From IMG/VR virus record IMGVR_UViG_3300010366_000030, positions 1-35,276 of that record: a stretch of 35,276 nucleotides of DNA. One strand, given 5' to 3'. The notes beneath the pieces were generated by a model. The model did no database searches, was not told the origin of the DNA, and saw nothing but the letters and a program-made list of their open reading frames with translations. This document shows, one piece after another, positions 1-29,804 of the stretch. The position numbers and the translations under genes were made by a program. Within the stretch, counting starts at the first letter, position 1, and the number at the start of each line of letters is the position of its first letter. This stretch comes from a virus (lineage: Duplodnaviria; Caudoviricetes).

Positions 1-242
1 GTGCCCCACCACTCTTCGTGGTAATCACGCCTTCCATTGGGAAGGGTGGTCACGTTGCCTTTACGTGACCGGCGCTTTGTGCCAGCCCTACCAGTGAAGG
101 CACCTTTGCTCAGGCCGGTACCGTCCACCCACTCAAGCTTGCCAGGTGCGGTTCTCACCAGCACTTTACCAGCGCCACCTTTACTAGGGGCGCTTTTGGG
201 ATCGTTGTCCCACTGGCGAAACCTGATCTGCTGCTTTGCCAT
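1..242 (-). CDS. Hypothetical basic protein, runs off the left window edge
   Basis: Not in the ORF track. ATG at 242 on the minus strand is preceded by GGGAGTGTGGAGA. It reads MAKQQIRFRQWDNDPKSAPSKGGAGKVLVRTAPGKLEWVDG... and stays open to position 1. Confidence 0.7.
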   Translation of the reverse strand, partial: MAKQQIRFRQWDNDPKSAPSKGGAGKVLVRTAPGKLEWVDGTGLSKGAFTGRAGTKRRSRKGNVTTLPNGRRDYHEEWWG

Positions 243-276
243 TCTCCACACTCCCTGTGCGGTAGTTGTTCACTGA

Positions 277-327
277 CCCCCGCTCAACGTGTACACACTG
301 TGCCACACGTGGCAGGGGGGCAAATGT
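277..327 (-). promoter_or_regulatory. Repeat copy A, putative leftward promoter
   Basis: Minus strand reads ACATTTGCCCCC-N13-CACAGTGT. Its conserved blocks match 659-708 closely and the spacing matches 441-473. Confidence 0.5.
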
Positions 328-336
328 TAAGGACTT

Positions 337-435
337 GTGTGCCGCAAGACGCAAGACTTATCGCATGTGCGACCACGTGCCCTGCTGTATCCAGGTGGAC
401 TTACCGTGGGCTTCGTCTTGCGTCTTGCGCCACAC
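337..435. repeat. 21-bp inverted repeat with one mismatch
   Basis: GTGTGCCGCAAGACGCAAGAC (337-357) pairs with GTCTTGCGTCTTGCGCCACAC (415-435). Each arm carries a tandem GCAAGAC. Confidence 0.85.
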
Positions 436-440
436 TCCTC

Positions 441-473
441 ACACAGTAGCCTGCCGGGTGAGGGGGCAAATGT
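441..473 (-). promoter_or_regulatory. Repeat copy B, putative leftward promoter with TANNNT -10
   Basis: Minus strand reads ACATTTGCCCCC-N13-TACTGTGT, the same 33-bp span as copies A and C. Confidence 0.5.
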
Positions 474-486
474 AAAGATGTGCTCA

Positions 487-529
487 CACAATGATTGACG
501 CCCACAATGATTGACGTGCTCAATGATTG
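487..529. repeat. Three CAATGATTG palindromes at 16-bp period (operator- or iteron-like)
   Basis: CAATGATTG at 489, 505 and 521. The first two extend to CACAATGATTGACG. Confidence 0.8.
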
Positions 530-619
530 GGGGTGTCAACGATCACACGCCGTGTGGCGTACCTAGGCAATGCCTAGGCACAAATCGCCACTAGTCCACG
601 TGTGACTAATGAACCGTCA

Positions 620-637
620 ATCCCCCATATGGGGGAT
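620..637. repeat. Perfect 18-bp palindrome
   Basis: ATCCCCCATATGGGGGAT is its own reverse complement. Confidence 0.85.
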
Positions 638-658
638 CTGTGTGCCCGCTGCGCTGTG

Positions 659-708
659 CCCCGCTCAACGTGTGAACACTGTGCCACAGCCAAAAGGGGG
701 GCAAATGT
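659..708 (-). promoter_or_regulatory. Repeat copy C, putative leftward promoter
   Basis: CCCCGCTCAACGTGT..ACACTGTGCCACA...GGGGGGCAAATGT is shared with copy A, with a divergent middle spacer. Confidence 0.5.
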
Positions 709-822
709 ATGGAATCGATTATGAGGCGAAAACCCCTACGTGTGAGAAACACTGTGTGCCGTGTGCTCTCATGGCTGCGGCGGGCAAACCGTGTCCGCCA
801 CACACGACACACAGGAGAAACC

Positions 823-1830
823 ATGAGACTCGGAACGATCATCACCCGGCACCTGATCATCGTGGGGCACGTGCTGACCCCACAGCGCAAATGGGTCACG
901 GCGGCTGTGCCGCATCCCTCGAACCTGTGGCGGAAGGCACGCCGCATCACCACGCAGCCCCGCCGCGTGTGGCTGCCGGGTGAGCACGCCGCGCTGTGTG
1001 CCACACGGGAGGCACAGCGGGAGGCACAGCGCCGCGTGTGGCTGCGGAGGGTCATCACGTGGGTCAGCCGCCCGCAGCCCGTCAGCGGGGCTGTGAAGCC
1101 CGCACAGCCCGTGCTGACGTACAGCACGCGCTACGGGCTGCGGCTGGCTGTGTCTGAGCGGGCTGCGGCTGCGGCGGCTGAGCGTGACGCACGTGAGAAT
1201 GGCACGCTCGGCAATCACACGCAGCGCAACCTGACGCGGGCTGAGCGGGCACGTCAGCGGTACCTCGCATCACTGACTGACGCTGAGCGGGCTGCGCTGG
1301 ACGCGCTGACCCCTGAGGATGCCGCTGCGCTGACTGAGGCATACGACACGGCACAGGCTGCGCTGACTGGCTACGACCCGCAGCCGTGGCGCGGCATGGT
1401 GCCCGCACGGGAGGCACGGGTCAGCCCCCGTGGCGCTGACGCGCCAGGTCAGCGCGGCACAGCCAGCCGGGTCAGTGTCCGTGACGCACACGCCGCACAG
1501 GCTGAGGATGAGCACGGGCTGACCGCAACGACTGACCGGCCGCTGCGGCTGCGGGTGAATGATGACCCGACCATGACACAGCGCGTGCTGACCGCTGAGT
1601 ACCGCGCGCTGCTGGCTGACGTGCCGATGGCTGAGCGGCTGCTGTGGCTGACTCAGGTGCCCGCATCAGCCTACGTCAGCGCCACGGTGCCTGTGCCTGA
1701 GCGGGCTGAGCCTGTGCGGGTCAGCCACACGCACCCGGCACACGCTGCGGCGGCTGCTGACGCACAGGCTGCGCGTGTGGCGCTGCTGGCTCAGGTCACC
1801 ACGCACACGGCTGCTGACGTCAGCGCGTAG
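823..1830 (+). CDS. Orphan Ala/Arg-rich protein (335 aa), Phe-free, TT-free gene
   Basis: The track ORF is 709-1830. The best start is ATG 823 after AGGAGAAACC. A terminator follows. No family recognised. Confidence 0.6.
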   Translation: MRLGTIITRHLIIVGHVLTPQRKWVTAAVPHPSNLWRKARRITTQPRRVWLPGEHAALCATREAQREAQRRVWLRRVITWVSRPQPVSGAVKPAQPVLTYSTRYGLRLAVSERAAAAAAERDARENGTLGNHTQRNLTRAERARQRYLASLTDAERAALDALTPEDAAALTEAYDTAQAALTGYDPQPWRGMVPAREARVSPRGADAPGQRGTASRVSVRDAHAAQAEDEHGLTATTDRPLRLRVNDDPTMTQRVLTAEYRALLADVPMAERLLWLTQVPASAYVSATVPVPERAEPVRVSHTHPAHAAAAADAQAARVALLAQVTTHTAADVSA

Positions 1831-1844
1831 CGCGCACGGCACAC

Positions 1845-1883
1845 GGGGGCACAGTCACAAGGGACTGTGCCCCCTAATTTTAT
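1845..1883 (+). terminator. Rho-independent terminator
   Basis: 12-bp perfect stem GGGGGCACAGTC / GACTGTGCCCCC with a 6-nt loop, followed by TAATTTTAT. Confidence 0.8.
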
Positions 1884-2157
1884 GCCCACCAGGACAACTA
1901 TTGGTTTGTGTGTACCGATCAAAAATGACCTTTAAAATAGGCCCTATGTGGTTTTGCAGCCCTACATGCCACATGTGCCCTACCTTGTGTCTCATCGAAA
2001 AGCCAGTCGAACAAGGGTTCCCACTGAGTGACGCTGCTAGACTTGGAGGCGCTGAGGGACGCCCTCTGCCCGCGTGTCGGCCTCCGAGAGGTCGGCCCAG
2101 GCCCGAGGCTGTCCGAGCCAGGAAGCCGAGAGAAGGGCTTACACAAGGCCACATAAG

Positions 2158-2565
2158 ATGGATACCCACAACCCACAAACACCAGATGAATCCGAAGACA
2201 ACCAGCTTTCCTTCGGACCCACAGACGACCAGCTAGCCAAAGAACTCAGGGACTACGCAAAGGCACTTCGCCAGGAGTTCGCACGGGAGACAGAGGAAGA
2301 GAACTCCACACGTGACCTCGAAGACCCTGTGTCAAACGTGGAGAAGTACACACGTCAGTTCTTCCGTCAGAATCTCCCTGACGCTGCTGCACAGATCGTG
2401 TGGCTGTCGTGTAACAGCTCATCCGATAGTGTGCGCTTGCGTGCGTGTCAAATCATCATCAAGGAAGCCTTGGAGGATGCACGCCAGGAAGGCGATCCCA
2501 TCAAGGACATCCTCAACGACCTCAAGAAGTTGCCCACAGTGGCAGACAACCTACCAAATAACTAA
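2158..2565 (+). CDS. Putative terminase small subunit
   Basis: Helical 135-aa protein upstream of terL with an SDSVRLRACQII motif typical of small-terminase-like proteins. Start chosen at ATG 2158; the frame is open from 2074. Confidence 0.5.
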   Translation: MDTHNPQTPDESEDNQLSFGPTDDQLAKELRDYAKALRQEFARETEEENSTRDLEDPVSNVEKYTRQFFRQNLPDAAAQIVWLSCNSSSDSVRLRACQIIIKEALEDARQEGDPIKDILNDLKKLPTVADNLPNN

Positions 2566-2588
2566 CCCATCCAACTGAGGGAGCCAAC

Positions 2589-2738
2589 ATGAACCGTGGA
2601 GTGACGGAGAACGAGGGAAATGAGCCAGAGGAAGCAGCAGAAGACACAGAGGCCGCAGAGGCCGAAGACACAGAGGCCACCGAAGACGGGGACGAAGCGA
2701 GCGAGGACACAGACACAGACGGCGACGAGGCAAGCTGA
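2589..2738 (+). CDS. Small highly acidic protein (49 aa)
   Basis: Below the track cutoff. RBS GAGGGAG. Sequence MNRGVTENEGNEPEEAAEDTEAAEAEDTEATEDGDEASEDTDTDGDEAS. Confidence 0.6.
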   Translation: MNRGVTENEGNEPEEAAEDTEAAEAEDTEATEDGDEASEDTDTDGDEAS

Positions 2739-2812
2739 GCACAACAGCTTGGTTACTCCTAGTAACCCTCATCCTCATAATCCTGTACATGCTGGGTAGG
2801 AACCAAAAATAA
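2735..2812 (+). CDS. Possible 25-aa single-pass membrane peptide (CTG start)
   Basis: CTGA overlaps the upstream stop. Reads (M)STTAWLLLVTLILIILYMLGRNQK and ends 3 nt before the terL ATG. Confidence 0.3.
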   Translation: MSTTAWLLLVTLILIILYMLGRNQK

Positions 2813-2815
2813 CCT

Positions 2816-4285
2816 ATGCCAGCCAAGGCAGGAGCAGAGCCAGGTATCTCAGATGAAGCTCTCTACCAAAAAGTGGGCTTTAGCCCGCATTCATCGGGAC
2901 AAAGAGCATACCTGTTCAGCAAAAAGCGATTCAATGTGCCCTGTTGTGGACGACGATGGGGCAAATCGCAAGCAGCCGGACACCGAATGACGTACAAGTC
3001 CTTCATTCCAGACAGTATCAACTGGATCGTAGGGACAACATATCGAATTGGTGAGAAAGAGTTTCGAGTTGTGTGGGATGATTACATGAATCTCGATATT
3101 CTGAAATACTGTAAGAAGGCATACAGTATGCACCAGGGAGATATGTACATCAAGACACCGTGGAACTCAGTCGTCATGGTCGTATCCGCAGACAACCCTG
3201 ACACACTCCTAGGTGAAGGGTTGTCTCACGTCATCATGAGTGAGACAGCACGTCACAACGTGTCCACGTGGGAACAGTACATCGAGCCTGCCCTGAGTGA
3301 CTTGAAGGGTTCAGCCGACTTCCCAAGTACGCCTCAGGGTTTCAACTGGTACCACGGTCTGTGGATGATGGGCCAGATTGCCACCATCGCACCACCCACA
3401 CCCTCCCATGATGAGAAGTGGAACTTCGCGCAAGACTACTCGTCGTGGCAGTTCCCCACGTGGGAGAATCTAGTGAGGTTCCCAGGTGGATACGACGATC
3501 CTGAGATCCAGCGGGTAAAGCGCACGGTATCCCCGCTGTGGTTCGACCAGGAATATGGAGCCATGTTCACATCCATGTCTGGTTCCATCTACGACGAGTG
3601 GGACGAGAAGCGTCACGTGATCGACAGTTACGACTTCAATCCCCTGTTGCCCAACTTCCTGGCCTTCGACTACGGATTCGCCAATCCCACCGTGTGTCTC
3701 GACATCCAGGTAGACACCACAAAAAATCCGCCTGTGGCAACTGTGTGGCGTGAGTATTACGCCTCGCAGCTTAGCACGCCTCAGAACGCACACAACATCA
3801 AGAACCGTCCGCAGCCCAAGGAGTACAGGGTAGATGGTATGTGGGGCGACCCACGTGGCGCAGACGAAGAGGCCATCTACTCTCAGTACCTTGGCTACGG
3901 GTACGTCCAGTCGCAAGACGTAAGGTGGAAGTTGGCAGTCGAGCAGACCAAGCGCATGTTGGCTGCCAAACCCACACAACTCCGTGTCCACCGTTCATGT
4001 GAGAAGCTCATCAAGCAGATGTCGAACTTGCACGTGAAGGAGCAGGGCAAGAACGCCAAGTTCGATCTGCAAGAGATGTCTCTCGGTGGTGACGGGAACA
4101 TCCAGCACAAGGTGGAAGACCACGCACCCGATGCTCTCCGTTACTTCATCGGTCCCTACTTCGTGCTAGGCAACAACATGTCTCTCGCAGATGTCTATGG
4201 CAACACGTACGTAGGCAGTGAGTCACATGAGTTCCTCTCCATGCAAACGGGTGTAACCCTCGATGATCTGGTGACGTTGGGTTGA
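2816..4285 (+). CDS. terL: Terminase large subunit
   Basis: Walker A CGRRWGKS, LLGEGL, Walker B-like HVIMSE, STPQGFNW, and nuclease motifs DYGFANP and DHAPDALRY. Confidence 0.95.
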   Translation: MPAKAGAEPGISDEALYQKVGFSPHSSGQRAYLFSKKRFNVPCCGRRWGKSQAAGHRMTYKSFIPDSINWIVGTTYRIGEKEFRVVWDDYMNLDILKYCKKAYSMHQGDMYIKTPWNSVVMVVSADNPDTLLGEGLSHVIMSETARHNVSTWEQYIEPALSDLKGSADFPSTPQGFNWYHGLWMMGQIATIAPPTPSHDEKWNFAQDYSSWQFPTWENLVRFPGGYDDPEIQRVKRTVSPLWFDQEYGAMFTSMSGSIYDEWDEKRHVIDSYDFNPLLPNFLAFDYGFANPTVCLDIQVDTTKNPPVATVWREYYASQLSTPQNAHNIKNRPQPKEYRVDGMWGDPRGADEEAIYSQYLGYGYVQSQDVRWKLAVEQTKRMLAAKPTQLRVHRSCEKLIKQMSNLHVKEQGKNAKFDLQEMSLGGDGNIQHKVEDHAPDALRYFIGPYFVLGNNMSLADVYGNTYVGSESHEFLSMQTGVTLDDLVTLG

Positions 4286-29489: not shown

Positions 29490-29804
29490 TTAACAGCAGC
29501 CGTCATATCTGCCCCACGGTTGGTGACAACCGTACTTGCGCCAAAGTAGATATGCGCGATAGTGCTGTTCTTCGCGTGATGCGCTCCACGCTGATCCTCT
29601 TCCTCCGGCTTCTGCCCATCCGGCCATCATGCCGTATAGGTTACTGCTTGCTGCGCCGTTACCTGACTCACGAATGCGGACACAAGTCATGTAACTTGAG
29701 TTCATCCACCAGCTAGGTGGCTTGGGCCATTGTGCTTGGGCTGTCTGTCCTAGTATCCCTCCCAGGATACATAGGAGGGACACTGTTATCAACAGCTTAC
29801 GCAT
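29490..29804 (-). CDS. Secreted Rpf-like lytic transglycosylase
   Basis: Signal peptide ending AQA; C..RESG...W...GG.G....ASREEQ...A..L....G...PW; RBS AAAGGAG. Confidence 0.75.
   Translation of the reverse strand: MRKLLITVSLLCILGGILGQTAQAQWPKPPSWWMNSSYMTCVRIRESGNGAASSNLYGMMAGWAEAGGRGSAWSASREEQHYRAYLLWRKYGCHQPWGRYDGCC

Follow-up and report, generated by a model that had tools for sequence, protein, structure and literature searches.

One gene of an uncultured tailed phage, together with the non-coding DNA before it, has lost the dinucleotide TT almost completely from a single strand. This purge is real and is conserved in related phages, and the gene encodes a protein of a family that is new by sequence comparison. 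The window in which it was found is a 35,276-nucleotide stretch of viral DNA (Caudoviricetes; IMG/VR record IMGVR_UViG_3300010366_000030, positions 1 to 35,276), a fragment of a contractile-tailed phage with genes for terminase, portal, protease, major capsid, sheath, tape measure, baseplate and PolA. A preliminary description of this DNA had claimed that TT is absent from the + strand between 721 and 1877, and so it is: one TT starts at 719 and the following one at 1878, which leaves a gap of 1159 bp where the second-longest TT gap of the window measures 219 bp. The TT-free stretch (721..1877, + strand) lies in a wider TT-poor zone of about 430-1877. The limits given earlier stand for the TT-free stretch; the TT-poor zone begins further to the left, near 430, and holds four TT within 430-822. 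At the right end, where T/A tracts had been reported, TT returns at 1878, and a hairpin with a T-rich tail occupies 1845-1884.

The absence of TT is not explained by chance. Among 5000 base shuffles of 721-1877, the TT count averaged 21.1 and never fell below 6, and 1500 synonymous redraws of the window protein gave a mean of 15.7 and a minimum of 5; the observed count of 0 is reached by neither kind of shuffle. The high GC content reported for the gene was confirmed as well (0.70 in the TT-free gene vs about 0.54 for the whole window). A chimeric assembly, which had been named as a danger to the claim, is ruled out by a single independently assembled contig that covers window 1-1925, by a contig from a second sample that matches 596-1350 with 2 differences, and by synteny in six other contigs, where the gene lies beside that of the terminase small subunit (terS).

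The gene (823..1830, + strand) encodes an Arg-, Ala- and Thr-rich, Phe-free protein of 335 aa, an assignment based on homologues and their synonymous divergence. As had been claimed, it has its own ribosome-binding site and terminator: AGGAG is read from the sequence at 813..817 (+ strand), with the ATG at 823 as the point to which homologue N-termini align, and the hairpin at 1845-1874 is terminator-like. The composition reported for the product also holds in this ORF, with 0 Phe and 3 Lys among the 335 residues, GAG as the codon for 17/17 Glu and CAG for 16/16 Gln. AA is scarce in the window ORF (11 copies, 2 of them past position 1230), but the reported scarcity is not a family trait, since L010 has 22 AA vs 22 expected and L125 has 48 vs 53. 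A spurious ORF is ruled out: codons differ at 91/177 identical residues between the window and L007, and because about half of the conserved residues carry different codons, the ORF is real.

A first search returned three homologues and a profile search three more; 22 matches were then obtained among 1.84 billion representatives, from which P0013 and P0022 were removed as repeat-protein artefacts. The family proteins are basic, the shortest being about 190 aa, and share the core motif RG-V-ARE-R-S-RGA...RVS-RD-H, followed in most members by VG-ATHP and a beta-hairpin. The family genes range from 0.63 to 0.73 in GC, and Phe accounts for 20/6547 residues in 22 family proteins vs 3.5% in 12 window ORFs. 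No match was found for the family among PHROGs and PDB sequences, for P0001 in Pfam, or for the family in cultured phages and the ESM Atlas. Scans of viral contigs with P0001 alone and with alignment A7 yielded no relative, and an 18-nt motif scan hit six unrelated loci, all without the gene. Foldseek gave no fold match in PDB or BFVD, which says little about the fold because the AlphaFold models of family proteins are weak (pTM 0.31 and 0.28).

DNA of other phages was drawn from eight loci (L002, L007, L008, L009, L010, L011, L023 and L125), giving, with that of the window, nine genes from distantly related soil phages. The contigs of L008 and L010 stop within the gene; the other six reach terS, and the gene lies directly before it in 6/6. 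Pooled over the nine genes, TT occurs 17 times vs 172.8 expected from base composition, and AA 195 times vs 291.9. L125, obtained last via a different anchor gene, has the same pattern (TT 3 vs 24.4 expected). GC- and protein-matched nulls for TT fail in 8/8 genes (P at most 0.003). Across 66 loci examined out of 80 terminase-anchored ones, TT gaps of at least 700 bp occur only in the four that carry the gene, the others reaching at most 286 bp. When 347 distinct ORFs of at least 250 aa from all fetched DNA are ranked by their observed/expected (O/E) ratio of TT, the seven lowest values (0-0.22) belong to family members; the next is 0.62 and the median 0.93. Nine non-family ORFs with a GC content of at least 0.62 have TT O/E of 0.98-1.49. 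TT avoidance thus persists in syntenic homologues whose proteins share 21-53% pairwise identity (first eight family genes), and the earlier claim that this sequence is kept without a short A/T motif is supported by the nulls, by the protein divergence and by the codon-junction counts given below.

Relatives without the gene have an Arg-rich leftward ORF of 107-147 aa directly before terS, several ending in GSQADYD (L025:6818-7177, L019:1091-1450, L030:6764-7180, L041:1383-1826, L031, L043 and L062, all on the - strand and recognised by this location). Nine short leftward ORFs of gene-less relatives show mild TT depletion (78 vs 126 expected). Compared with the gene family, such ORFs reach an hhalign probability of 0.3-0.6%, with one weak HMM match (L062, E 0.013). 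AA-poor stretches in L059 and, by position, in L055 and its kin were considered as inverted copies of the zone and rejected, since they have the look of repetitive genes on the + strand with few Lys/Asn codons. The one in L059 (5460-7330) is a long repetitive + strand stretch before the terminase of a distant clade, rich in Thr, Asp, Val and Ile codons and AA-poor, and is likely a virion decoration gene.

The purge affects the sense strand only and all reading phases. At codon junctions, the nine genes have 2 TT vs 35.8 expected, with junction AA at 51 vs 68.5; in synonymous shuffles of seven genes, the 2 junction TT compare with a mean of 24.9 and were matched by 0/3000 shuffles. The 290 non-coding bp before the start hold 21 TT vs 84.0 expected over eight loci, and AA stands there at 152 vs 148.7. 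Because TT is also lost at codon junctions and in non-coding DNA, a codon-level (tRNA) cause fails. Readers of the duplex fit poorly, as they would meet AA and TT as one and the same step and upstream AA is normal; in tests that keep the protein constant, a significant shortage of AA is seen in 2/8 genes only (window and L002). In eight genes, TTC, TTG and TTA occur 52, 70 and 16 times on the antisense strand and 9, 4 and 0 times on the sense strand. With TTT included, TTN totals 147 on the - strand vs 14 on the +, nine of the 14 residual copies being TTC, and sense-strand AAG occurs 50 times. The loss is confined to adjacent T-T: the O/E for T pairs is 0.10 when they adjoin (distance 1) and rises to 0.88 at distance 2. 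Dinucleotide O/E is 0.09 for TT, 0.56 for CC, 0.66 for GG, 0.91 for TC, 0.93 for GA and 1.14 for CT, and codon-junction TC is at 66 vs 91.5 expected (seven genes). A bias towards purine-pyrimidine alternation, milder and two-sided (as seen in CC and GG), lies on top of the TT purge. The explanations left standing are those in which a single strand is affected at neighbouring T or U. As a separate observation, both strands of the zone are rich in CACGTG, CGTGAG/CTCACG and TGAGC/GCTCA in the pooled family genes, and these words may be binding sites within the coding sequence.

Both edges of the TT-poor zone carry recognisable elements. At the left edge lie tandem CTTGC repeats (417..452, + strand); TT stands at 7.2 per 100 bp before them and at 1.0 after them, with no fall in AA. 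In 7/7 loci the change comes at the last CTTGC copy, which is 311-585 bp ahead of the start: TT density is 3.9-11.2 per 100 bp on its left and 0.9-1.8 on its right. In the window the final copy forms TTGCGC-16 nt-TAGCCT, a candidate rightward promoter. A -10-like hexamer is found 16-18 nt past one of the last two CTTGC copies in 6/7 loci vs 13.7% of 270 background sites, in a comparison where the -10-like pattern is lenient, three of the seven loci are close kin and L023 is without the hexamer. These features suggest that the last CTTGC copy acts as a rightward promoter. At the right edge, the hairpin (1845-1874) with its T-rich tail (1845..1884 in all, + strand) is terminator-like in sequence and contains ACTGT. 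TT returns at or just past a hairpin 45-130 bp downstream of the stop, and ACTGT lies at most 130 bp from the stop in 6/7 genes having downstream DNA; the L125 hairpin has no U/T tail, and TT returns about 80 bp later. As it spans a candidate rightward promoter to a terminator hairpin, the TT-poor zone is probably one transcript.

One concern is that leftward promoter-like modules sit within the zone, so that its upstream part may not be a single rightward leader. The repeated module at 273..327 (- strand; direct repeats D3 and D9, with a second copy at 654-708 and a partial one that ends near 477) is likely a leftward promoter, to judge from a weak consensus score, and similar modules are present in L007 and L008. 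Three operator-like dyad repeats, CAATGATTG (489..529), recognised by their sequence and matched by a similar array in L008, contain 3/4 of the TT within 430-822. A conserved non-coding block at 562..635, aligned in the window, L007 and L008, comprises a CCTAGGC-AAT-GCCTAGG dyad, GTGACTAATGA and a CCCCCATATGGGGG dyad, and is a putative origin, operator or packaging site; the first of these dyads is also found in L023 and, in variant form, in L010. Folding scores of the zone are strong and alike on both strands. Rfam gave no match at E 1 or better in window 1-3000, and in five loci only a tRNA, in L023 outside the zone. This tRNA gene (L023:1239-1324, - strand) belongs to the early region of G002/G003. 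An AATGTAA motif occurs in a single orientation at window 316-331, 462-477 and 697-712, and on both sides of the gene in L002, L007, L009 and L011. An antisense promoter at the 3' end of the gene was considered and rejected, the consensus scores being weak and inconsistent.

To the left of the zone, the 5' part of a leftward early gene with a conserved KRRSRKG motif runs off the window (1..242, - strand) and aligns with leftward ORFs of L007, L023, L030, L036 and L041. On the right follow terS (2074..2565, + strand), which is strongly conserved in relatives and weakly matches phrog_2538 (E 0.005), and the terminase large subunit gene (2816..4285, + strand; phrog_2, E 1.6e-28). Upstream of terS, at 2009..2020, lies the LexA-box-like site GAAC-N4-GTTC, the form of the LexA box in Gram-positive bacteria; this single match is not above chance (0.52 expected), and L007 has one at the same place. 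LexA-box-like sites number 6 in G004 vs 0.83 expected, and three fall within 75 bp in L007. Such sites were seen at L007:483-555, at L008:1440-1509, in G004, at window 2009-2020 and in the early regions of L023, L025, L030, L031 and L041; they are mostly flanked as CGAAC...GTTCG and cluster in early/control regions of the close clade. Two complete relatives, G001 and G002, have genes for a helicase, a PD-(D/E)XK nuclease, a primase domain of RepB type and a fusion of UDG with PolA, and no integrase was seen among the 25 and 57 ORFs scanned. Possibly, the close clade consists of SOS-controlled, non-integrating temperate phages.

An Rpf-like transglycosylase, DUF6011, a CHAP-type lysin and the closest cultured terminases, which are those of Arthrobacter and Microbacterium phages (30-33% identity), together suggest an actinobacterial host. 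A genome scan for the host returned two distant terminase matches only. The Rpf-like transglycosylase (PF06737) is at L101:18596-18958, in G001, and a small secreted-looking ORF at window 29490-29804 (- strand) resembles it, with no Pfam match. Before terS, whether the gene is present or absent, a TGTACCGA motif is kept (window 1911-1918; near L007 3071, L009 1080, L011 8523 and L030 7325) with a downstream promoter-like element, GAGTAAC...TATACT/TAGACT; the two are a candidate packaging site and late promoter. In a related phage, about 10 tandem copies of the telomere-like repeat TAACCCTAG lie upstream of a collagen-repeat gene (L035:139-226).

The best available explanation, which we hold tentatively and with the balance tilted against it, is that a UU-free transcript has been selected to escape a ribonuclease that cuts single-stranded RNA at U-U. 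The TT-poor zone would be a single mRNA with a long leader, started at the last CTTGC copy, and the selecting agent would be a U-U-preferring RNase, either a host defence or a stress toxin. The basic product would be needed while other RNA is cut; it could, for instance, bind nucleic acids in maintenance or in counter-defence, with its expression divergent from that of the early genes. This reading is preferred because the zone resembles one transcription unit and because U-preferring RNases exist: LshCas13a is a U-preferring single-strand RNase (PMC11042736), while MazF-mt9 cuts UU^U and MazF-mt6 UU^CCU, and MazF sites are under-represented in some M. tuberculosis PPE genes (PMC5408214). The preliminary description had paired resistance to such RNases with independence of particular tRNAs; the first half is kept, and the second falls with the TT loss at junctions and in non-coding DNA. 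Several points count against the RNase. In local folding, U that remain in UU (n=55) have a pairing probability of 0.58 and single U (n=1339) one of 0.62, which is unfavourable because UU that escaped a single-strand RNase should lie in stems. In vivo, the main target of Cas13a is tRNA and not mRNA (PMC11042736), and translation of a UU-free message would still depend on tRNAs and ribosomes. Finally, the other phage genes keep normal TT, as their median O/E shows.

Avoidance of thymine dimers on a poorly repaired strand is unlikely. The + strand would be the one left untranscribed in a unit under constant transcription, or would stay single-stranded for long, and persisting TT photodimers would block replication. 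That only adjacent T-T is lost, that CC is low with purine-pyrimidine alternation high, and that many LexA-box-like sites in the clade suggest DNA-damage control all agree with this. TC is also a major photoproduct site, however, and sense TC is not below that of the other strand, as the near-equal values for TC and GA indicate. The purge is much weaker on the template strand (AA 0.62-0.67), where dimers would stop transcription. Repair of dimers is slower on the non-template strand, in mainly mammalian data (PMC12293044), but every other phage gene has a non-template strand too and yet keeps its TT.

An R-loop or single-stranded replication origin is less probable still. Here the transcript would be hybridised to the - strand with the + strand displaced, UU would be removed as the weakest rU-dA steps, and a RepB-type primase of the phage would make use of the conserved motif in the hairpin on the right. 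UU is indeed the weakest hybrid step (-0.21 kcal/mol), but the abundance of the 16 dinucleotides does not follow the hybrid advantage (Spearman 0.04, P 0.90), and GG, the most favourable step, is depleted. The repeat arrays and dyads of the zone, whose two strands both score strongly in folding, the RepB-primase domain and PolA in relatives, and the recurrence of ACTGT past the stop in 6/7 genes would suit an origin, whereas GC skew is near zero across the gene.

We consider it improbable that the zone was shaped by transcription free of pausing and termination (no U tracts, no NusG TTnTTT), by independence of tRNA-Phe/Lys/Glu/Gln, or by a property of the duplex such as bending or avoidance of nucleoid proteins. 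The purged strand is indeed the non-template one, on which TTnTTT is recognised by NusG of B. subtilis, but mycobacterial NusG works without this motif (10.1101/2022.10.21.513233). Windows with at least 4 T in 8 nt are reduced to 16 vs 38 in codon shuffles; on the other hand, T pairs from distance 2 upwards come close to their normal frequency, and the elemental pause motif occurs as often as expected (485 vs 485). General pause avoidance fails on this last count and because mycobacterial NusG does not need TTnTTT. All window Glu and Gln codons end in G, as independence of tRNAs would have it, but the junction and non-coding TT loss excludes this as the cause. The physical property of double-stranded DNA that had been put forward earlier is not supported, upstream AA being normal (152 vs 148.7) and AA and TT being one duplex step.

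A purge of CRISPR PAMs (TTN/TTC) from presumed first-entering DNA, which the preliminary description had offered for type I systems, is very unlikely. The + strand is nearly without TTN, one-sidedness could arise from oriented spacer acquisition from a DNA end, and motif loss in leading DNA is a known form of restriction escape (PMC12455610). The - strand nevertheless keeps its 147 TTN vs 14 on the + in eight genes, and the reading is not supported because reverse-strand TTC, TTG and TTA are plentiful and sense AAG numbers 50. The assembled contigs also revealed no genome end. Least probable of all is strand-specific mutational pressure or a compositional by-product of a GC-rich, Arg/Ala-rich protein, which the GC range of the genes and their fast protein divergence (21-53% identity) would allow and which the tests cannot formally separate, as strong local mutation bias, from selection, but which is opposed by the failure of the GC- and protein-matched nulls in 8/8 genes, by the normal TT of the nine GC-rich non-family ORFs and by the near absence of Phe from the family proteins relative to the window ORFs.

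Restriction-site loss in first-injected DNA is known from T5 and T7, and RNA viruses show UpA and UU depletion against RNase L. The latter resembles the present case in acting at the dinucleotide level and on a single strand; it is eukaryotic, genome-wide and partial, whereas here one transcription unit of a bacterial DNA phage is affected. Murciavirus has lost restriction sites under type I restriction-modification, and as here a short motif is missing from one bounded phage segment and present elsewhere; the motifs described there are long and read in the duplex, in contrast to a one-strand dinucleotide in DNA whose first-injected position is only presumed (PMC12455610). In the PAM depletion of phages reported by Kupczok and Bollback in 2014, TTN/TTC-type words are likewise under-represented after codon control, but the effect given is modest, genome-wide and concordant on both strands, and here it is about tenfold, restricted to one unit and one-sided (PMC4246573). 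Avoidance of MazF sites is similarly gene-specific and on the sense strand; the word lost contains U, and its loss is interpreted as a way of escaping an RNase with sequence specificity. Those sites are of 3-7 nt and chromosomal, whereas here a 2-nt word is lost in every context from a phage gene, at the cost of nearly all Phe, and the RNase is hypothetical (PMC5408214). No prior description of a one-strand dinucleotide purge of a single unit was found in a largely open-access literature. Motif avoidance in a bounded phage segment is of a known kind; the one-strand dinucleotide purge of one unit appears to be new, and the protein family is new.

A tenfold one-strand loss of a two-letter word, upheld down to 21% protein identity and with almost all Phe given up, is the footprint of a strong and specific pressure, and the duplex-reading explanations tested (PAMs, bending, nucleoid proteins) leave the TT loss unaccounted for. 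A coding-strand TT O/E below 0.3 offers a simple screen for such genes in other phages. In an uncultured phage clade, the finding also ties a new protein family to the region of early/late control. It is possible, if rather doubtful, that LexA-wired soil phages write one divergent unit, leader and gene, with no UU/TT on one of its strands, so that only this gene can still be read once a U-U-specific nuclease or lesion has silenced the rest. This would be a sequence-encoded immunity of a single gene with a new basic family as its payload, and it would point to an undescribed dinucleotide-reading defence in soil bacteria.
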